A DNA stretch of 21,851 nucleotides from Candidatus Heimdallarchaeota archaeon (GTDB taxonomy: Archaea; Asgardarchaeota; Wukongarchaeia; Wukongarchaeales; JBHIFL01), in NCBI GenBank assembly GCA_046761065.1, contig JBHIFL010000068.1, positions 1 through 21,851 on the forward strand, in the 5' to 3' direction. Made by a program: the position numbers and the translations under genes. The notes under the pieces were generated by a model, which searched no databases, had not been told where the DNA came from, and saw nothing but the letters and a program-made list of their open reading frames with translations. Positions 5,627 to 21,821 of this stretch are shown one piece after another (the stretch's first letter is position 1; every line of letters starts with the position of its first letter).

Positions 5627-6357
5627 TCAGAGCGGCTACCCAGAACTCTATTTTGGGAAAAGAATAGAATAGTTTTAAGATAGGAAAAAGAATAACTGCA
5701 AGAAAAAAATCTATGAGTAAGTTACCAAATAAAAGCAAACAGTCTCCTAATAGTGATTTATATACTGAAAGCAATTGTGACTGCCTTGGTCACTCAATTA
5801 ACGAAAGAAAGTGATTACTCGCTTTGGGAAGTGATTGCAAGCTGGGAACACTCCTATTGTAAATCAAACAGGTATTATCAAAAATACAACCGTGCTTACT
5901 GGGCGAACGCTGGTTTAGGAAGAGTTTACTATTCCATCGTATTAAGAAATGAATTAATTCTTAGGAACTTCTATATGACTCCTATGCTCTGGGCTTTGCT
6001 TGTAGATACTGAAGTCTTACTCGTTTTTATAATCGAGGGAACTCAATAACAGATGTTCATTTCGAAGCAGATCTTGAAGACGGCTACGAAACGACCTCGC
6101 TCATGAGATTTATTCATTTTATATCTTTCTTGTAGATCGAAGCGAAATAAATCTTTTAAATTCCAAAATATATGTAATAGGACTCCTTAGCCGCATAGAT
6201 CTCTCTGATGCCGAAGCTTCCCTAGTAAAAGACGAAGGCGTTTAGAATTTAGTTGAGGATTTTTTGATAGAAATTTTACGAAGCGGCCCATCGAGTTTGA
6301 GTTTTGTTTTTATTGATATTTATGAATTCCTAGACTTTCCGAAAGTTATCTCACAAT

Positions 6358-6745
6358 ATGCAAGAGATATGCAAAACTGAAGAGAATTGTAAGTATTATA
6401 ACCGTACTGGTGTTTGGAAACTTCAGGAGGTTTATGAATTTGGCAGCACCACCTTAGAAGCTTATCTTCACAGGTAGGAACTAAGTTATTTGGCCTTATA
6501 ATTATCCATGATATCTGGAGGAAGGACAGGAACTTATTATTTGTGATGTAGTTACTGGTGCTATTGAGGGAATACACTTTACGTTATATGATATGAAAGT
6601 TCGAAGTATCAAGGGAAAAGATCCGTTTTACGAATTAGACCAACGGACGGGGGGTATTAAGAATAATAATAGGATTCTAAGCTTCTCTTAAGATGAAACT
6701 GGGGCGACTGGGGAATTCGTAATGAAATGGGTTTTGGAGCTATAA
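6358..6745 (+). pseudogene. Decayed coding remnant of unknown family
   Basis: Protein-like fragments MQEICKTEENCKYYNRTGVWKLQEVYEFG... and YLEEGQELIICDVVTGAIEGIHFTLYDMKV...FS*DETGATGEFVMKWVLEL*, interrupted by stops and a frameshift. Confidence 0.3.
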
Positions 6746-6815
6746 ATGACTTTTCTACCATATCAAATTTTTGTTGTATAAGTTTAATGAAGTTTTTTGA
6801 AAGTTTAATTAGGGA

Positions 6816-7274
6816 TTAATCAGGATGGCTCACATTCTCTCCAACACTGTAAAGAAAGATTCGGGCGGTAGAAGGCCCCACTCGTTGAAATCTTGTACTG
6901 AGCGATTTAATCACCAGAGCATAATCCTCAGACTTGTCCAGTCCATCAAGGTATGCTTGAAACGATTCCGACTCCTTTTTGATCTTCTGGAATTCTTGTG
7001 CATTGAATATTGTAGCTTCAATCTTTTTTCTATTGCGTACGATGCCTTTGTCATTCATTAACCGTTCTAAATCACTAACATCGAACTTAGCTACCTTGTC
7101 AATGGAAAAGTTCGCAAACGCTTTCTGAAAGTTCGGCCATTTCTTGCTGATCATCTTCCAGCTTAAGCCAGCTTGAAAGATCGTGCGTGTTAGGTTTTCA
7201 AAATATGCATCATCATTTGGTGGTCGAGTCTCTCGGTACATCCAGCTTGGAGGTTGCCAAGTTGATTCATTCAT
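6816..7274 (-). CDS. tag: DNA-3-methyladenine glycosylase I (short form)
   Basis: DDAYFENL, FQAGLSW, AFANF, GIVRNRKKIEATIFNA and FQRVGPST are Tag family motifs. ATG at 7274 is preferred over the upstream TTG at 7301. Confidence 0.9.
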   Translation of the reverse strand: MNESTWQPPSWMYRETRPPNDDAYFENLTRTIFQAGLSWKMISKKWPNFQKAFANFSIDKVAKFDVSDLERLMNDKGIVRNRKKIEATIFNAQEFQKIKKESESFQAYLDGLDKSEDYALVIKSLSTRFQRVGPSTARIFLYSVGENVSHPD

Positions 7275-7369
7275 AGTTCGTCTCCAAAATTTAATCACCA
7301 AGTGAATTATTTATTTCTTGCGGACTAATTGACGATAAAACATGAGAATTGTCGGTATTCTGTCGAAAA

Positions 7370-7456
7370 ATGCTGTTTATCATCCTATCAAAGATTAAAT
7401 GTACGGTTTGCCGATCTTTTAATACTAAAAGAGATCCCAATTGTTCTAAGCGTTGA
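7370..7456 (+). pseudogene. Decayed zinc-ribbon remnant
   Basis: Reads MLFIILSKIKCTVCRSFNTKRDPNCSKR*. CxxC-x10-Cxx spacing is identical to the downstream gene, and CGT TGA is one substitution per codon from TGT GGA (Cys-Gly). Confidence 0.35.
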
Positions 7457-7650
7457 ATCTTGACCCTGAAGAAGAATTTGATGGTTATTTAATAATTTAC
7501 ACTGTATAATCGTTCATGCTTATGAAATAAATATGTTGAAACTTCATAACTCTATAATAATCTATGTAGATTACTGAGAAAAAATTTAACTTATGTAAAT
7601 AGAAATATTATACTTGAAAAGAAAATTCTTATCGAGTGTGTGTATGTAAA

Positions 7651-7995
7651 ATGGTAAGTTGTGCGGTTTGTGGGCAAGAAAATGTAGACAAAGCGAAATT
7701 TTGTCGTTATTGTGGTACTACAATAATTCCAAGCTCGTACTCAGAGCCACGAGTACCCTATCAACGGGCATCATATCCTAGAGTAAAAGCATCTGTTGGC
7801 TTTGGAAGTCGAAGGACTGGGGAAGATCTCGTAATACAATGTAGTTTGTGTGGGGGACAGGATTTTGCTCAAGATTATGGCCGTTTCGACAGCAAATGGG
7901 GTTTCACCTCATTTAAAGTTATTATACTGACCTGTAAAAGCTGTGGACATATAGAACTCTTTATGAAGGGTCGAACAATCTTTGACTTCGATTAA
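7651..7995 (+). CDS. Protein with two zinc ribbons
   Basis: CAVC-x10-CRYCG at the N-terminus, a low-complexity linker, and CSLC...CKSCGHIELF at the C-terminus. ATG 7651 is preferred over GTG 7636. Confidence 0.85.
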   Translation: MVSCAVCGQENVDKAKFCRYCGTTIIPSSYSEPRVPYQRASYPRVKASVGFGSRRTGEDLVIQCSLCGGQDFAQDYGRFDSKWGFTSFKVIILTCKSCGHIELFMKGRTIFDFD

Positions 7996-8241
7996 AACAC
8001 ATATTAAATAAAATTAATTTGTTATTTTATCTCTAGATCATGCCTTGGGTTGTTCTTACCTTTTAAAGAACAATATATCCTTTTTCTTTTTGCCAATACA
8101 TTGTTTCTCCAATGACTAGAAGAGCCTTTCTGTCATCCAAACAATCTATTGTACCCATCACAGCATAAATATGACCAAAAACATACATAATTGTAGATTT
8201 ATCCGAATTACATACCTACGAAATAAAGAAAGCTGATATAC

Positions 8242-8841
8242 TTGCCTAGTGATTCAGAAGATTCCCAAAATCTTCTTCTTCTATTTGGCAGTAGAGCTAT
8301 TGACGAAGCAACTGCGGAAAGTGACCAAGATCTCTTAAGAATAGTACATGTTGAAACGAAACAAAAGATACAGGAGCTCCCAGCAAGTATTTCTAGATTA
8401 AAACGTGTCTCACTAGACGAGTTACCCTATAATATCGTCAAAGAAGGGCTAACTATCGGAGCGCCAGATATTTTATTTATTTTTGCGCAATGTCAGGTGT
8501 TGGAAGGCCATGACATTTTTCAAAAGCTTCTAAGGATAGATCAAGGGATAACTTCCCTTTCAGTCAGTCTATCCCTTCAAAAAGCCCAAAAAACTATCAA
8601 CTTTTGTGAAGAGTTGCTTTATGACGAGTTTGGAAGGTTAACAGCTCACCAATTAGCTGTAGCATGGTTTTGGGTTCTGGCAACAGCTAGGTTTGCAGTA
8701 GGAATGATCCCAAGATCTAAAAAGCAGCTATTTCACTTTGGTGAAGAGGAATTCACAATTTCTGAACAAAAAATGCTTGAATATTCATCATACGTGTCAG
8801 TAGATCTTTATGAGCCTCCTCATGAAGAAGTACGGGAGTAA
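8242..8841 (+). CDS. Minimal nucleotidyltransferase (MNT) domain protein with C-terminal helical extension; probable antitoxin
   Basis: LLLLFGSRA-x7-SDQDLL is the Pol-beta superfamily GS...DxD motif. It lies 3 bp upstream of a HEPN gene. Confidence 0.8.
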   Translation: MPSDSEDSQNLLLLFGSRAIDEATAESDQDLLRIVHVETKQKIQELPASISRLKRVSLDELPYNIVKEGLTIGAPDILFIFAQCQVLEGHDIFQKLLRIDQGITSLSVSLSLQKAQKTINFCEELLYDEFGRLTAHQLAVAWFWVLATARFAVGMIPRSKKQLFHFGEEEFTISEQKMLEYSSYVSVDLYEPPHEEVRE

Positions 8842-12290: not shown

Positions 12291-12666
12291 CTATACCAGT
12301 TGCAGTTTCGAGATTTCGCTAAAATGTTTCTTGTTGAGCGTAAACAGTTTGCATTTATGATTCAAGGCGATGGCGGCAATTAATATATCACTGCGCGGTT
12401 TCTTTTGTCCCTGACGTTCGAGTTCGACTTCCATCCGGGCTGCAATATCCGCATCTTTGGCTGTAAAGGGAAGTGTTGGGAGTTGCCACAGGAAATGATC
12501 CTCAGGAAGTTTTTGGATTGGAGTTCTCTTATAAATTCCATAAAGAATTTCCTCTAGGTTAAGAGCTGTCGTGGCGAGTTCATTATTCAGCCGTTTTAAT
12601 TGATCAAGCAATCTTAGAGTCCTTTGCAAGAATTTCAATGATCACATCGGAATCTAGGAGAATCAT
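12291..12666 (-). pseudogene. vapC: PIN-domain (VapC) toxin with a frameshift near 12604-12612
   Basis: ATG at 12666 overlaps the antitoxin stop and reads MILLDSDVIIEILAKDSKIA* (TGA 12606-12604). The +1 frame continues DQLKRLNNELATTALNLEEILYG...SDILIAAIALNHKCKLFTLNKKHF. The ORF-track protein lacks the first catalytic Asp. Confidence 0.85.
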
Positions 12667-13968: not shown

Positions 13969-14577
13969 TTGCGTTTTGAGTGGGCCTCAATGAGTGAAAA
14001 CGAGCAAGAAGGTTTAAAAAAGTTACTGGTAACTCTTAATCCCCGTGCAAAAGTTTGGCTTGAATATAAAGGGGAAGCACTTGTAGGTCCCGGGCGCGCA
14101 GACCTTCTAGAAGCGATTCTTCAAGAAGGGTCATTAGTTCACGCTGCCAAAAAAAGGAATATTTCATTTCGAGCCGCTTGGGAACGAATAAGAAAAATAG
14201 AACACCGGTTAAAAATTCAAATTGCAAAAAGCAAAAAGGGCGGAGAAGGAGGAGGGGGTACAACCTTATTAACAGAGATGGGTAGACGTATTTTGAGAAG
14301 GTATAAACGCCTAGAAACCGCTATGGAGGATGTTTTAAGTGATCCAGAGCTTATGGAGGTCTATGGAATGAAAATAAGTGCCAAGAATAAACTGAAAGGA
14401 ACAATCCAAGACATCGAACAAGTGGGAATCATCGCTAAGATTAAAATCCAAGTGAAACAGCCATTAGTTATTACCAGCATAATTAATACGGAAGCCATCG
14501 AAGAGCTAAATCTTAAGGAGGGAGACACTGTTAATGCTATTATAAAAAGTACTGAAGTGCTAATAGGGAAGGATTAA
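13969..14577 (+). CDS. modE: ModE-family molybdate/tungstate-responsive regulator (wHTH + single TOBE)
   Basis: GPGRADLLEAI..GSLVHAAK..ISFRAAW...GGEGGGGTTLLTE and ISAKNKLKGTI...ITSIINTEAIEELNLKEGDTVNAIIKSTEV. Alternative start ATG 13990. Confidence 0.9.
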   Translation: MRFEWASMSENEQEGLKKLLVTLNPRAKVWLEYKGEALVGPGRADLLEAILQEGSLVHAAKKRNISFRAAWERIRKIEHRLKIQIAKSKKGGEGGGGTTLLTEMGRRILRRYKRLETAMEDVLSDPELMEVYGMKISAKNKLKGTIQDIEQVGIIAKIKIQVKQPLVITSIINTEAIEELNLKEGDTVNAIIKSTEVLIGKD

Positions 14578-14762
14578 AAGCCATTATGAGTGAAACCTCC
14601 AATATTCTCTTAAAAAATGTGTTTTATAAACTCAATTGCAAAATACTTTTCAAAGATTAGTTCGATTAAGTTGTAGCAATTTGTTTTATAGATTTAATGT
14701 CAGTGCAAATCATTTTATAAAAACAAAAAATTACAGAAATCGAATTAGAGAGATGTCAGTGA

Positions 14763-15329
14763 ATGAGTGAGAAATCAGCGCACTGTTGGCGTTGTGGAAC
14801 CCCCCTTGTCTCGGGGGCTTCGTTTTGTAAGCGTTGCGGAGCTAACGTTGAAGATCAAGAACCAACAAAGCAAGATATGCAGAAAGACATGAAAATTCAG
14901 TATTGTTCTCGATGTGGGAAGAAAGTCAGCCCCAGAGCGGCCTTCTGCTCGAACTGTGGCTTAGAACTGGCGCGTCCAGAAACTACGTTGTCCCCTATTT
15001 TAGAACCAGACATGGCTGCAAAGGAATCAATACCCCCAACCTGGCCCGCACCTCGAGAATACCCATATCCTTCAATGCCCACTGATCGTGATCGATCCCT
15101 TTCCTTGATCGAGGGGGTCATTGTTGCCATTTGTTCTTTTCCATTTTATGCCATTCCGGGAATTGTGGCTTGGGCGGCTTGGCGAGGGAAGTATCCTCGG
15201 CGAGCAAGGCAAGCATTTTTAGTCGGTGCCTTGGCATTTGCCGTAAACGTTATTTTAGTTATTTACATTATCAAATACAGACCTTATTTGATCCCTGAGG
15301 ACTTACGGCGGATGCTAGAACAGCCATAA
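14763..15329 (+). CDS. Double zinc-ribbon protein with two C-terminal TM helices
   Basis: CWRCG-x9-CKRCG and CSRCG-x9-CSNCG, a Pro-rich linker, and two hydrophobic segments flanking WRGKYPRRARQA. Confidence 0.85.
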   Translation: MSEKSAHCWRCGTPLVSGASFCKRCGANVEDQEPTKQDMQKDMKIQYCSRCGKKVSPRAAFCSNCGLELARPETTLSPILEPDMAAKESIPPTWPAPREYPYPSMPTDRDRSLSLIEGVIVAICSFPFYAIPGIVAWAAWRGKYPRRARQAFLVGALAFAVNVILVIYIIKYRPYLIPEDLRRMLEQP

Positions 15330-15349
15330 GGATATCATGAGGAAGAAAG

Positions 15350-15742
15350 TTGATCCGTGAACTTGCTTATCGGTTCAAAAAGATGAAGTTTGAAATTGTT
15401 TTTTGCCATCGACTGCCCAATCGGACTCCAATTATTTGGTTATTAGGAAAACCAAGAAGGCTGCTTTGCTATCGCTGTTGTGGAGCCGCGGTGGGATTCA
15501 TTCTTCCTTGGATTCTATTATTCATGAATAATATGTATAGACAACTGATTTTCCTCTACCCACTCACTGGATTTACCCTATCGCTACTCCTTTTCCTCCC
15601 TATGGGGATTGATGGCCTTGGACAAGCCTTGGGATACTGGTCAAGTACAAATCTCAGACGATTCCTAACTGGACTTGGAGGAGGGGCCGCTCAGACGATT
15701 CTAGCTATGATTGTTGCAGGATTACTTCTCCGTATTGTTTAA
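15350..15742 (+). CDS. DUF2085 family membrane protein
   Basis: CHRLPNRT, LCYRCCG, PMGIDG..Q and STNLRRFLTGLGGG motifs. Confidence 0.85.
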   Translation: MIRELAYRFKKMKFEIVFCHRLPNRTPIIWLLGKPRRLLCYRCCGAAVGFILPWILLFMNNMYRQLIFLYPLTGFTLSLLLFLPMGIDGLGQALGYWSSTNLRRFLTGLGGGAAQTILAMIVAGLLLRIV

Positions 15743-16018: not shown

Positions 16019-16579
16019 TTGCCATATTTGAAGAGTGTGCCTATCATGTCGGGAACCCCTCCATTAGTCCCACTCCCAGGACATAGCGATTTCCTCATCC
16101 GAATTGTTCCAAAGAGCCAAAGATACCATTTGAAAATAAGTTGTTTCGTTGAGCTCTATAAACAGGAAGAAGAGGGTAATATTTTGGTAGGGGAAAAGGA
16201 AGTCGGATCATTATCTGAACTTCTTAGAGCTGCTGAAAACCTTGTGGGGCAGGAATTAAGGACAAATCGCCCCGCTAGTTCAACCATTCGGGCATTTATC
16301 ACTGATTATCTGTCGAAATACCTTTTTCCTGAGGCCCAAGATGAGATTGCTAGTGACGTGCAAGAGGTCGTTATGGAACCGATTTTAGAAGATATTCGGG
16401 GCATTGGCCCAAAAACTGTTGTGGAACTGCGAAAAAAAGGGATCACGGATATCGACCAGCTTGTACGAGCACCAGAAGAGCTTTTGCGTGAAGAAGTAAA
16501 ATATATGGGGGATAAAAGAGTAAAAAGTGCAAAAAACCACGCAAGACAGCTGAAACGGCAAGACGAAGTGGAAAAATAG
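16019..16579 (+). CDS. Protein with an unknown N-terminal domain and a C-terminal helix-hairpin-helix (HHH_5/RadA-N-like) domain
   Basis: LEDIRGIGPKTVVELRKKGITDIDQLVRAPEELL...MGDKRVKSAKNHAR. Alternative start ATG 16046. Confidence 0.8.
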   Translation: MPYLKSVPIMSGTPPLVPLPGHSDFLIRIVPKSQRYHLKISCFVELYKQEEEGNILVGEKEVGSLSELLRAAENLVGQELRTNRPASSTIRAFITDYLSKYLFPEAQDEIASDVQEVVMEPILEDIRGIGPKTVVELRKKGITDIDQLVRAPEELLREEVKYMGDKRVKSAKNHARQLKRQDEVEK

Positions 16580-16621
16580 GAGACTTATATAAACTTATTA
16601 AATGGTTGTGGAGGCATATAA

Positions 16622-19162
16622 ATGACGCAACAGGATATCCTGGCAAAGTTAGGGCTCTCCGAGTCCGAACAAAAAGCGTACATCACGCTACTTGCAATGG
16701 GGCAGTTGAGTGAGGGTGAACTTGCGAAATTCTCAAATATAAGGGTACAAGAAGTCATAGGGATTCTTTCCCAACTCAAAGAAAAAGGGCTTGCTCACGA
16801 GATCCATGGCATTACCGCCAAATGGGTTGCATCCTATCCGTTTAAAGACATGTCAGAAAGTATTGCTCACTTAAGGACGGATCTCGCAGCCCTAAGCTCC
16901 GACCTTGATGCAGTTTTAAAAAACCGTGTGACAGAATACCAGTCCTACTCTGAACAAACTCGGAAAGAGATGGAAGAATCATTAGATCGAACGAAACGCA
17001 CGATAAAGATCAGCACTGATACCATGAAGGAAGACTTTGAAAAGTTCACTGATTCAATTGTAGAAAAATCAAATGGAATTTTAAAAAACGAAGAAAGCCA
17101 GCTTATTCAAACAATAAAGACAACCCTAGATGCAGAGAAAACACAATTATCCGATATACGAGCGCGAAACCAAGTAGCGTTAGAAGAAGCAACTACTAGT
17201 GTGACAACTGCGGTTTCCACGGGAAAAGAACAGGTCAAGCAGCAAACAGCTCATGTGAGGACCTCCCTTATATCAAGCGTGGATGATTTTGAGGCGAAAA
17301 CACGAGCCAATGCGACAACCCACCTAGATAACGCAACAACCACCTTAGAGCAGGGGAGTGTCACCTTGAATGACGTACTTACTTCCAGCTTCCAAAATTT
17401 CAATATGGCCCTTGAAGAACTCCAAACGAAGCTCGAAACGATGGCAAAGGAACAATCACGAGCGATGACGGGTGTTGGAAACACAGTAAAAACAAATGCC
17501 ATGGGATTCGCAGAGAAACGGCAGTCAGACATTCACACTTTTTTAGGGTCAGTCAGAGATCAAAACGCTGCAATTATGGAACAACACTCTACGACTCTAC
17601 GAGAGAGAGCAGATCAAACCCACAAAAGATTAATTGCAAAGGCGAATCAAGAATTAAACCAACTTCGGATGACTGCGAACACTGTTATTGAGAATCTTCA
17701 ATCTAACGCGACCACGATTGTCCAAGCACTTGAAAGCAAAGTCACACAATTACTACAAACGTTTCAAGAAACAATGAGCGCAGGAGTAGCTGAGTTTAAT
17801 ACTACTCTACAACAACAAGGGAGTACCTTTGGGGAGCAGGTGGAATCCTCCCTTCAAAGTTTTGAGACTACTTTGACGAACACAACCCAAGAGTTTGCTA
17901 CAGGAATGTCATCTCTTGTAGGAGAAATCGACACCCGATCCAAAGAAGCGGTGGAACAACTCGTTACTGAACAACTCCAAACCGCAGATGGTGAAACCAC
18001 ACAGTTTAAGGAACAAATTGAAGCGACAATTAACCAAGGAACAGAACAAACCGAGCAACTATCATCGAGTTTTCGGGAGGAGTCTCAAAACCTTTTCAAG
18101 GGCTCATCAGACGAGGTTCAGGAAATTATAACCTCTGCTAAGGGGACTATTTCGCAACTTGCTGAGCAAGTACGGCAATCTCACAAGCAGGCGATTACAG
18201 ACCACCTAGAACGCTTAGGTTCAATTGTTGCTGAACAGAAAGAGGTGGTAAATACCAATACTGCAGAACTTGAAACTTCCCTTGAAGCCAACCTCACCAC
18301 GCATGCTAATACAATCGATACAACCACTCAGACACTTCAACAAACGTTTAACAACCTAGTTACGAACGGGCACACCGCCATTGATACGGTTCAGCAAGAG
18401 CTTGCCGAGACAATCCAGCAAGCCACAACACAACTTGCTGAGCAAATCAGGATGAATACCAGTAGTCTCCAGGATAAGGCAATTGACACAATGAATGAAA
18501 GCTTTTCAACTTCAATGCAAGCTATTGATACTACCGAGACTACAATCGGGACGGGAATTAAAGAACAGATCAATACCCTAATCGGAAAATTACAAGACTT
18601 CTCAGAGCAGTTTGCGAATAAAGTTCAAGGTGTTTCAGACATTGTTGGAAATACAGAGACGGCGTTAGGCACTTTATGGGATATTGTCCAAACTTATGAC
18701 CGTAAACCACTCTTTACTGCTGTCTTACTGGGAAAAGAATCTATCATTTCGTATATGGAGAAGATGCTCAAGGAGGTTAAATCAACCATCACTCTAGTCA
18801 CACCCTCATATCAGTTCCTTCCAGTAGATGCAATCAAAGCGGTTAAAAGTGCAGTCAGAGTCTCGATTTTAACTACCGTGGATCCAATGGATCCAAGCGA
18901 CCGTGAGTTCATTCAAGATCTTTATCAACAAGAGAATGTCCGTGTTAGGACCATTCAACGCGAACGAATCGAGTATTGGGGAGCTGATAGGGACTCAGAA
19001 GAGGTAGTACTTGCTCCGGCTGAACCGGAACGACCAGATGCAGAGCTGGTAGGTGTAGCTACTCAAACAAAAGGTTTCATTGATCTTCTAAGCAAGGTAA
19101 CAGTTGGGTCTTATTTAATGGGAATGAGCAAGGAGATTAGTCGAAGAGAAGTCGATATGTAA
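16622..19162 (+). CDS. 846-aa protein: TrmB-like wHTH, about 620-aa hendecad helical region, TrmB-C/PLD-like domain
   Basis: LAKLGLSESEQKAYITLL...ELAKFSNI...LSQLKEKGLA is a TrmB wHTH. There is no Pro between residues 73 and 696. The C-terminus GKESIISYMEKMLKEVKSTITLVTP...VRVSILT...DSEEVVLAP fits the TrmB effector/PLD-like fold and lacks HKD. Confidence 0.85.
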   Translation: MTQQDILAKLGLSESEQKAYITLLAMGQLSEGELAKFSNIRVQEVIGILSQLKEKGLAHEIHGITAKWVASYPFKDMSESIAHLRTDLAALSSDLDAVLKNRVTEYQSYSEQTRKEMEESLDRTKRTIKISTDTMKEDFEKFTDSIVEKSNGILKNEESQLIQTIKTTLDAEKTQLSDIRARNQVALEEATTSVTTAVSTGKEQVKQQTAHVRTSLISSVDDFEAKTRANATTHLDNATTTLEQGSVTLNDVLTSSFQNFNMALEELQTKLETMAKEQSRAMTGVGNTVKTNAMGFAEKRQSDIHTFLGSVRDQNAAIMEQHSTTLRERADQTHKRLIAKANQELNQLRMTANTVIENLQSNATTIVQALESKVTQLLQTFQETMSAGVAEFNTTLQQQGSTFGEQVESSLQSFETTLTNTTQEFATGMSSLVGEIDTRSKEAVEQLVTEQLQTADGETTQFKEQIEATINQGTEQTEQLSSSFREESQNLFKGSSDEVQEIITSAKGTISQLAEQVRQSHKQAITDHLERLGSIVAEQKEVVNTNTAELETSLEANLTTHANTIDTTTQTLQQTFNNLVTNGHTAIDTVQQELAETIQQATTQLAEQIRMNTSSLQDKAIDTMNESFSTSMQAIDTTETTIGTGIKEQINTLIGKLQDFSEQFANKVQGVSDIVGNTETALGTLWDIVQTYDRKPLFTAVLLGKESIISYMEKMLKEVKSTITLVTPSYQFLPVDAIKAVKSAVRVSILTTVDPMDPSDREFIQDLYQQENVRVRTIQRERIEYWGADRDSEEVVLAPAEPERPDAELVGVATQTKGFIDLLSKVTVGSYLMGMSKEISRREVDM

Positions 19163-20468: not shown

Positions 20469-21821
20469 TCAGCCGTGTTTTTCAAATTTGGTCAGAGCAT
20501 CTATAATTTCACGAGGTATAGTCCTTTGTGTAAATTCTTGTAATGTTGGCAGCTGTTCCCCGGTTTTGAGACGCTTTTCTGTCCGATCACAAAGGAACAG
20601 AGAAATCAGTGAGAATGCGGCCTCAACGTTTTCACCTGTTTTTGCCGAAGTTTCGATGTAGGGGCATTGAAGCTCATGAACAAACGTCTCAATATCGTCG
20701 GCTTTGATATCTCTTTTTTCTCCTAGATCAATCTTGTTTCCTAAGAGGATAATGGCGGTCGATTCACCAGCATATTTCCTTGTTTGCTCGTACCAGCTCT
20801 TCACATTTACAAATGATTTGCGGTTTGTGATATCAAAGGTAATAAAACAAGCATGAGTTCCTCTGAAATAGGCTTTTCGCACGCGAGCAAACTGCTCTTG
20901 TCCCCCCATATCGTGAATACTCAACTTCATCGTGGTTTCTTGATCAGGAAATCTAACAATCTTAGTCATTATATTAACGCCTAAAGTTGCTTTATAATCT
21001 TCATTAAAAGCGTTCTCTACAAATCGTCGTACTAACGAGGTTTTACCAACGGCTTCATCACCCACAATAGCTAGTTTTGCTAAATAATTACCAGGTTTAA
21101 TTTCAAGATATCTAATTTGGTCGGCCTTTGGTTTTATGCTAGGCGGTAACTCTTCTATATCCAAGATGGGGATATCTAACGTCACGCTTCGGTCGTCCAT
21201 AATTCGCCACAGTTTTTCAGCTGCCAATAAACTGTATGCCAGAGTTTGTTCAGTTGGAACACGGATGTTTGAAATTGCAACAAGAGATAGATCGGATCCT
21301 GCCCTTGCAAATACAAATCGAAAATAACCAAGCTCAAATACTCCCGTTCCGAGCGAAGTGAGGTCAAAACTCCTTATAATACCATCAATTATTTGGTAAA
21401 CCATAACTTCCATCATATCGATTTTATCGTCAGGTATGTCAGGAGCAGGTTTAATTCCAATATTGGTTCCTTCCCTATCCAATACCAAAACACAAGTAAT
21501 TTCTGGCACGATGCCAATGAAATTTGTAAGTAGTGTGTCAATATCTTTTGCTTTTTCTTTGGGAATCCGTTGATGCGACGAGGCCACAATAGCTCCGACG
21601 ATACTGTCCCCAGTGACTTGCCCACGAACTTGGATTCTGCCTTTCGCTGTTGTTAAGAAAAAAATCGTAGAATGTCCCCTGTGTGGCACTTCCACCTTGA
21701 AAATCCCACCCTTACTCTTTGCCTTCAATTCTTCAAGGACTACCTGTAAATAGAGCTTTTCTTTGCACTTTTCACACACTGCAAAGACAGATAATCTATT
21801 GGTATTAGTTGGCATCGACAT
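20469..21821 (-). CDS. Fusion: CxxC/HxxH putative Zn domain + roadblock/LAMTOR-like domain + Rab-like small GTPase
   Basis: G1 GDEAVGKTS, G2 YKATLG, G3 DMGGQE, G4 NKID, G5 SAKTG. Roadblock-like pattern IDTLLTNF...EITCVLVLDREGTNI...FVFARAGSDLSLVAIS. N-terminal CEKC...HRGH. Confidence 0.9.
   Translation of the reverse strand: MSMPTNTNRLSVFAVCEKCKEKLYLQVVLEELKAKSKGGIFKVEVPHRGHSTIFFLTTAKGRIQVRGQVTGDSIVGAIVASSHQRIPKEKAKDIDTLLTNFIGIVPEITCVLVLDREGTNIGIKPAPDIPDDKIDMMEVMVYQIIDGIIRSFDLTSLGTGVFELGYFRFVFARAGSDLSLVAISNIRVPTEQTLAYSLLAAEKLWRIMDDRSVTLDIPILDIEELPPSIKPKADQIRYLEIKPGNYLAKLAIVGDEAVGKTSLVRRFVENAFNEDYKATLGVNIMTKIVRFPDQETTMKLSIHDMGGQEQFARVRKAYFRGTHACFITFDITNRKSFVNVKSWYEQTRKYAGESTAIILLGNKIDLGEKRDIKADDIETFVHELQCPYIETSAKTGENVEAAFSLISLFLCDRTEKRLKTGEQLPTLQEFTQRTIPREIIDALTKFEKHG

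Follow-up and report, generated by a model that had tools for sequence, protein, structure and literature searches.

The closest described relatives of the protein considered here are archaeal proteins of the TrmB type. TrmBL2 (TK0471 / PF0496; PDB 5box, 5bpd, 5bpi, 5bqt) is a chromatin protein of Thermococcales. In TrmB, two chains contact each other through antiparallel pairing helices (F81/I91', F84/L88'), and Tyr50 (and Asp51) of the recognition helix matter for DNA binding in characterized TrmBs (PMC4158304). A wHTH (winged helix-turn-helix) joined to an antiparallel coiled-coil rod is also a working DNA-architectural design, as found in Sso10a (PMC4941522), and in coiled coils built from hendecads, repeats of 11 residues, the helices run almost parallel (PMC3293630). 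The stretch analyzed here (hereafter the window) is 21,851 nucleotides of contig JBHIFL010000068.1, from a Candidatus Heimdallarchaeota archaeon (GCA_046761065.1). It encodes an 846-amino-acid (aa) protein in which a TrmB-type wHTH and a TrmB/TrmBL2-type C-terminal domain are separated by a 622-residue hendecad rod. Among known prokaryotes, Asgard archaea are the most closely related to eukaryotes, and how their cells are built is still poorly understood. The protein is a greatly extended variant of the TrmBL2 architecture, from an apparently undescribed family: no published description of it was found in the searchable literature on Asgard archaea and archaeal hendecads, in agreement with a first-pass annotation of the window, which had picked out this gene as a candidate for an undescribed system. 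The gene and its parts are as follows.

16622..19162, + strand: whole rod gene, 846 aa (P0001), ATG start, TAA stop
16640..16831, + strand: TrmB-type wHTH, residues 7-70 (Pfam PF01978)
16841..18706, + strand: proline-free hendecad rod, residues 74-695, about 56 repeats (periodicity; all-helical AlphaFold2 (AF2) prediction)
18707..19159, + strand: TrmB/TrmBL2-type phospholipase D (PLD)-like C-terminal domain, residues 696-846 (AF2, Foldseek, VIA-align)
16585-16592 and 16610-16614, + strand: putative upstream signals of the rod gene, a TATA-like TTATATAA and a GGAGG, respectively (read from sequence)

The GGAGG lies 7 nt 5' of the ATG. T-rich sequence is found directly 3' of the gene, and a scan of the window against Rfam gave no match.

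End domains of the TrmB type

At the N-terminus, residues 7-70 match the TrmB wHTH of Pfam (PF01978) with 40.9 bits against a cut-off of 25.6. The closest PDB sequence is TrmBL2 (E 9.7e-5), with the alignment covering residues 16-80 of 5box. For the C-terminal domain (residues 696-846), an AF2 model built on a 66-sequence alignment reached a predicted local distance difference test score (pLDDT) of 92. In a Foldseek search with this model (E 7.6e-8), TrmBL2 chains came first, followed by PLD-family proteins and TrmB. VIA-align superposed it on TrmB 2f5t with Z 17.1 and a root-mean-square deviation of 2.0 over 132 residues, within 2f5t residues 110-243 only, and on TrmBL2 (5bpi/5bpd/5bqt) with Z 14.2-14.3; the final ~45 rod residues together with the domain are superposable on TrmBL2 76-264. 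The Pfam score for PF11495, 20.9 bits, falls slightly under the cut-off of 22.2, and a profile of the domain found nothing among PDB sequences beyond a weak FAM83B match (E 0.15). Altogether, both end domains are of the TrmB/TrmBL2 type, and the TrmB assignment first proposed is borne out by the PF01978, Foldseek, and VIA-align results.

The two structure comparisons locate the PLD-like first subdomain of the TrmB effector-binding domain in the C-terminal domain. The second, sugar-binding subdomain of TrmB (G320/E326 region) is lacking, the protein stopping ~150 residues past the rod. A wHTH and a PLD-like domain without a sugar subdomain make up the TrmBL2 layout, here therefore with a linking helix ~15-fold longer. 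The NCBIfam equivalog model of TrmBL2 (NF041141) scores 27.1 bits against a cut-off of 530, so the architecture is alike and the protein is not an equivalog. The C-terminal domain contains no histidine, and the catalytic H-x-K-x4-D motif of the phospholipase D superfamily is missing; the domain is therefore no HKD enzyme and has the fold alone in common with PLDs. Its family motifs are K-S-[ST]-I and R-D-x-E-E-V, with E794 invariant.

A proline-free hendecad rod

The only prolines of the 846-aa protein are at positions 73, 696, 728, 734, 755, 758, 799, 802, and 805, and the claim that none occurs between P73 and P696 was verified: residues 74-695, 622 aa, are proline-free. Fourier analysis of Kyte-Doolittle hydropathy over residues 75-695 gave a single sharp peak at 3.67 residues with a power of 623, compared with only 11 at 3.50 and 12 at 3.60. 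Maxima from shuffles of the same rod (n=200) averaged 60.5 (sd 11.4), the largest being 101.6. The repeat is thus a hendecad rather than a heptad, as the first-pass annotation had it. The 3.67 signal was found in all sub-stretches of the rod that were tested, including each third, and its phase shifts little, from ~4.2 to 2.0 residues across 600 residues. This drift of ~2 residues over 600 means ~56 hendecads without a stutter, to our knowledge the longest uninterrupted natural hendecad array.

Cutting the rod into 11-mers from residue 191 gives at position 4 exactly the series that had been read at first, V,V,L,T,A,L,F,L,M,A,I,N,L,L,L,L,L,F,F,F,F,F,I. Over the 56 hendecads, large hydrophobic residues stand at positions 1, 4, and 8 in 54-62% of repeats (57-71% counting Ala) and at positions 5 and 11 in ~30%, the other positions being taken by Thr, Ser, Gln, Asn, or Glu. 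The richness in Thr, Gln, Ser, and Glu claimed earlier is seen in the composition (T 15.0%, E 9.8%, Q 9.8%, S 8.4%), and the rod is acidic, with 54 Lys+Arg and 91 Asp+Glu (net charge -37). AF2 predicts it to be all-helical. No DNA tandem repeat was found beneath the 11-residue pattern, and the repeats are therefore taken to be old and diverged.

An amphipathic helix of 11/3 periodicity could also lie on a membrane or lipid surface, as in apolipoproteins, perilipin 4, or synuclein, with the wHTH tethering DNA or a partner. The Apolipoprotein A1/A4/E family of Pfam (PF01442) is matched with 81.5 bits by the 846-aa protein, below the cut-off of 90, and with 102.6 bits, above it, by a 1208-aa paralogue in the same genome, and ApoA-IV 3s84 is matched at E 0.005. 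The very long 11/3 helix of perilipin 4 is reported to be able to coat lipid (10.1101/276238), and the gene of a membrane protein of the lysyl-phosphatidylglycerol (LPG)-synthase type adjoins the rod gene. However, a Pfam match of this kind is expected from any long amphipathic 11-mer array, and the class-A charge pattern and interfacial Lys belt are absent. Positively charged residues are scarce, and the positions flanking the five-position hydrophobic arc carry no Lys/Arg majority (position 9, 20% Lys/Arg vs 25% Asp/Glu; position 7, 7% vs 16%). The hydrophobic stripe is narrow, with three main positions and large Leu, Phe, and Ile residues, Pro-punctuated 22-mers are missing, and the membrane-protein neighbor is limited to this locus and that of a close orthologue, outside the recurrent neighbors of 52 loci of the family. 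Together with the net charge of the rod, these features disfavor the lipid-binding alternative raised by the first-pass annotation, which we consider very unlikely.

Rod length in an Asgard-wide family

An orthologue at 82% identity has equal length and aligns with the 846-aa protein with 0 indels. Over the 622 residues of the rod, identity is 78%, compared with 93-95% in the ends. Within the rod, the core positions 1, 4, 8, and 11 are 82-89% identical and positions 2, 5, 6, 7, and 9 are 70-73% identical. Together with the absence of indels, this speaks for selection on the rod. The same 4.4-Mb genome encodes four more proteins with this C-terminal domain. Three of them show the complete architecture (1208, 1453, and 768 aa); the fourth is a 538-aa form of rod plus C-terminal domain. 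It also encodes a 1940-aa protein of MarR-type wHTH plus rod (contig C73:4025-9847, - strand), without the TrmB-type C-terminal domain, which has a hendecad signal along most of its length and a Ras-like GTPase 3.2 kb away. A 425-aa rod-only protein is translationally coupled to the 1453-aa gene, with a 4-bp overlap with the next start. The 11/3 signal is present in all paralogues as well as in the 1940-aa and 425-aa proteins.

An exhaustive HMMER search of 1.84 billion representatives matched 254 proteins to the family at E<=1e-3 and 98 at E<=1e-10, with lengths of up to 1794 aa in the best 150 matches. Nearly all matches have a best period of 3.64-3.68, an N-terminal wHTH, and the C-terminal domain at the extreme C-terminus. 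The named members that were looked up are all Asgard, from Hodarchaeota/Hodarchaeales, Heimdall-, Hermod-, Thor-, Frey-, Sigyn-, and Helarchaeota, Njord- and Baldrarchaeia, and 'Promethearchaeota'. Clustering in the ESM Atlas puts the long forms into groups that are 98-100% archaeal, most often Promethearchaeota, and short TrmB relatives (260-290 aa) occur across other phyla. At least one family match was found in 39 of 41 sampled Asgard genomes (19/19 among the high-quality ones), mostly with 2-5 copies per genome. The protein with the 622-residue rod is not the singular oddity that it had seemed: it is one paralogue among several in a family that almost all sampled Asgard genomes contain.

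The protein in tenth place by identification score in the proteome of the cultured Asgard archaeon Promethearchaeum syntrophicum is DSAG12_03376, named 'TrmB family transcriptional regulator', with a normalized spectral abundance factor (NSAF) of 0.15 (PMC11284389). This is a low length-normalized abundance, as for a long protein, and DSAG12_03376 is a lead only, to a possible member of the rod family.

The span of the rod, from a near-invariant Pro after the wHTH to the start of the C-terminal domain, ranges from 104 to ~1550 residues across the family. A subfamily of ~760 aa, to which one paralogue of this genome belongs (contig C36:25952-28258), has 19 members at 36-64% identity over 765 alignment columns. 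Its members are 759-765 aa long throughout Heimdall-group lineages, and the rod has 539-540 residues in nearly all 19. Rod length is thus fixed inside subfamilies while rod sequence diverges. Being held within orthologous groups and differing between paralogues, it shows the behavior of a ruler or strut. In the closest subfamily the rod lengths are 579, 590, and 623, i.e. differences of 11 and 33, but lengths are not quantized modulo 11 in a Rayleigh test (p 0.36 for 56 distinct lengths; 0.74 for 18 unbroken rods), and growth in steps of 11, which had been raised as a possibility, is not clean family-wide. Mapping of indels against homologues gave scores near zero, the rods being too diverged.

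Continuous rod or fold-back

We tentatively favor the view that the 846-aa protein is a cytoplasmic architectural protein, a fixed-length coiled-coil spacer with TrmBL2-type heads. The pairing helix of a TrmBL2-like ancestor (wHTH, pairing helix, PLD-like domain) would have been drawn out into a strict 11/3 helix of 622 residues. Two (or four) chains would associate through the narrow a/d/h stripe, and the resulting coiled coil, with almost no twist, would act as a stiff spacer of set length, ~92 nm when continuous. Because TrmB pairs through antiparallel helices, lengthening such a helix in register in a dimer of antiparallel chains would leave a wHTH next to the PLD-like domain of the partner chain at either end of the rod, like a domain-swapped TrmB head. 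The two heads would then be kept a fixed distance apart, bridging or tethering DNA or protein partners.

It is also possible, though doubtful, that the helix reverses at ~380-388 and that its 310-residue halves pair antiparallel within the chain, giving a rod of ~46 nm. In that case the wHTH and the PLD-like domain would be reunited in a TrmBL2-like head, and the whole would resemble an SMC/Rad50-like arm without an ATPase. Several observations point this way and weigh against a continuous rod. The full-length AF2 monomer model (pLDDT 66.7; predicted template modeling score, pTM, 0.36) divides the rod into helices 74-226, 231-378, 383-531, and 535-691, with breaks at the exact midpoint (379-382) and at symmetric quarter points (227-230 and 532-534). 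The single helix of ~90 nm first proposed is weakened by this model of four helices of ~150 residues, itself of low confidence. The breaks hint at fold-back, although an isolated chain could bury the stripe in no other manner. Register breaks in the family as a whole are concentrated at 0.45-0.55 of rod length (39/158), and other subfamilies therefore probably fold at the middle. Moreover, the 1453-aa paralogue has prolines and phase jumps near the quarter, half, and three-quarter points, and in the ~760-aa subfamily I338, R341, K342, F344, and G346 are invariant at the rod midpoint. These last residues lie within an R-K-L-F-K-G-K-D-E-F-like motif, a candidate hinge or tip.

However, the a/d/h pattern and its phase run uninterrupted through residues 367-407 in the subfamily of the 846-aa protein, and no register jump occurs in the rod of the 846-aa protein or in those of nine divergent representatives of its subfamily. 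The center contains no midpoint Pro, and the subfamily alignment has no conserved central motif there. Tests for mirror symmetry about the midpoint, by charge pairing and by core matching, gave no signal. The pLDDT at the modeled breaks is 40-50, and no single TrmB or TrmBL2 chain fits both modeled end domains together: compared with the PDB, the full-length model gave meaningful matches from the two end domains alone, never both on one such chain. A complex prediction with two copies of a short member (P0029, 450 aa, alignment A2) scored 0.01 and speaks neither for nor against pairing. For the subfamily of the 846-aa protein we lean slightly toward a continuous ~92 nm rod over a ~46 nm fold-back.

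DNA contacts and the possible role of the heads

For a spacer that bridges DNA, the winged helix raises a further set of difficulties. Tyr50 and Asp51 of TrmBL2 align with Ile46 and Gly47, R-T-Y-D being replaced by E-V-I-G. In 163 family members, the column of the Tyr holds Q/E/R/D/K/N/S/I, mostly Gln or Glu, with Tyr outside the top eight; the Arg-Pro of the wing is replaced, mostly by Lys or a hydrophobic residue and then Val. The net charge of the wHTH averages -0.8 in the family. Five canonical TrmB-like proteins (260-292 aa) encoded in the same genome keep both [RK]-[VIC]-Y-[DQH] and the wing Arg-Pro, whereas both are lost in all four rod paralogues. In addition, no conserved neighbor indicating a chromatin role was found at 52 loci of the family. 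The DNA tether suggested by the first-pass annotation is the weakest part of that reading, as it depends on a wHTH in which the marks of a DNA-binding TrmB, Tyr50/Asp51 and the Arg-Pro of the wing, are lost. Judged from these residues, the wHTH may bind DNA by another mode, or may bind protein.

The same residues bear on whether the protein is an ordinary sequence-specific regulator of the TrmB type, its rod being an overgrown dimerization element. The TrmB wHTH scores above its Pfam cut-off, and relatives are named 'sugar-specific transcriptional regulator TrmB' in databases. However, the protein ends after the PLD-like subdomain and has no sugar-binding one, the recognition Tyr/Asp retained by the five canonical proteins is lost, and dimerization would not require 540-620 strictly conserved rod residues. 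A conventional sugar-sensing or sequence-specific regulator role is unlikely, and we give a regulator with an overgrown dimerization element only a very slim chance.

The protein could also be the unit of a filament or lattice, whether cytoskeletal or nucleoskeletal, in the manner of intermediate filaments or coiled-coil-rich proteins (CCRPs), with the ends mediating head-to-tail or lateral assembly rather than DNA binding. Consistent with such a role are the several paralogues of differing fixed length per genome, the wHTH without a DNA-contact signature, the conserved acidic R-D-x-E-E patch in the C-terminal domain, and the rod-only partner encoded beside the 1453-aa paralogue. TrmBL2 also forms thick filaments, though on DNA (PMC8707338). 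A stutter or linker pattern of the intermediate-filament kind is absent, however, and no direct sign of higher-order assembly was seen; we regard a filament as improbable.

A broader proposal, to which we likewise assign a small probability, is that the family provides Asgard archaea with a set of molecular rulers or struts of their own, with paralogues of fixed length (~104 to 1550 rod residues) linking chromatin, membrane, or cytoskeleton at defined distances. The coiled-coil proteins of the eukaryotic nucleoskeleton and eukaryotic coiled-coil tethers would then have in it a prokaryotic forerunner, or an analogue, built on a transcription-factor chassis with the wHTH turned to a new partner.

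Genomic neighborhood

The following features flank the rod gene in the window.

12291-12638, - strand: PIN-domain protein, 115 aa, in an AT-richer stretch
13969-15742, + strand: ModE-like regulator (LysR-type HTH + TOBE), double zinc-ribbon protein (membrane segment at its C-terminus), and DUF2085 membrane protein
16019..16579, + strand: helix-hairpin-helix (HhH) protein, 186 aa (Pfam HHH_5), 42 nt before the rod gene
20469-21821, - strand: 450-aa protein, a long N-terminal extension followed by a Ras-family GTPase domain (249-406)

Gene order is shared with the locus of the 82% orthologue: the genes of the ModE-like regulator, the zinc-ribbon membrane protein, the DUF2085 protein, and the HhH protein precede the rod gene there too, and are followed on the opposite strand by those of the LPG-synthase-type membrane protein and the Ras-like GTPase. 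None of these neighbors recurs beside other family members. The HhH protein, considered as a partner and kept in the orthologue's locus, does not accompany the other rod genes of this genome or the 52 family loci elsewhere, and is a lineage-specific neighbor.

Linkage to Ras-like GTPases was considered and rejected. Three of the six rod genes of this genome, and two other loci, have one within 4 kb. Across the 52 loci (21 genomes), a Ras-like GTPase lies within 3 kb in only four, and the density near the rod gene (0.17 per 10 kb) matches that further out (0.20). The genome as a whole has 34 Ras-family matches. Linkage to SMC and ScpB was likewise set aside. The closest non-orthologous relative, from Candidatus Hodarchaeum mangrovi (6001-8400; 799 aa, 26% identity), sits between two ScpB genes and SMC, the latter together with a 289-aa gene; this arrangement is not recurrent in the 52 loci except for one weak SMC-like match, and the SMC of the present genome, on a 3.3-kb contig, speaks neither for nor against linkage.

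Other subfamilies have conserved neighbors of their own, namely an AAA_16 ATPase with a rod-only protein, and uncharacterized proteins of 417 aa and ~290 aa. In this genome, an array at contig C20:39110-46411 comprises a 569-aa protein (whose relatives have an AAA_16 ATPase domain), the 425-aa rod-only protein, and the 1453-aa TrmB-rod protein. An ATPase-like gene is found two genes upstream of long rod genes at 6 loci in 6 genomes.

Significance

With 2-5 copies per genome in nearly all sampled Asgard genomes, the family looks like structural hardware rather than a gene switch, with rods tens of nanometers long whose lengths are conserved as their sequences drift. Should the heads bind DNA, the family would make up a class of long-range chromatin bridge not seen before; should their target be something else, a transcription-factor fold would have been recruited to a scaffold. 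A hendecad array of this length is also of use to coiled-coil physics and design.

Comparison with known systems

TrmBL2 shares with the rod protein a TrmB wHTH, a helix, and a PLD-like C-terminal domain, with the sugar-binding subdomain absent from both. In contrast to the helix of ~40 residues in TrmBL2, that of the rod protein is a strict hendecad of 622 residues; Tyr50/Asp51 and the wing residues are changed, and the rod family has been seen so far in Asgard archaea only. Pyrococcus furiosus TrmB (PDB 3qph, 2f5t) has a wHTH of the same family, and the C-terminal domain corresponds to its first effector subdomain. Unlike P. furiosus TrmB, the rod protein has no second subdomain and no Y50/D51, and its rod is ~15 times longer, exceeding by a wide margin every TrmB linker so far described. 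Sso10a offers a likeness in design, a DNA-bending and DNA-bridging coiled-coil rod with winged helices at both of its ends (PMC4941522), but it is a 10 kDa protein with a rod of a few nanometers and no C-terminal domain, and homology is not claimed.

Hendecad coiled coils such as the E-G peripheral stalk of A/V-ATPases and tetrabrachion have the 11-residue repeat and an a/d/e/h-type core in common with the Asgard rod (PMC3293630). Their rods comprise ~5-10 repeats, whereas the Asgard rod has ~56, unbroken. Apolipoproteins and perilipin 4 share the 11/3 periodicity and partial PF01442 matches, and the perilipin 4 helix is of comparable length; unlike them, the Asgard rod lacks Pro punctuation and an interfacial Lys belt, is strongly acidic, and carries a narrow stripe of large hydrophobic residues.

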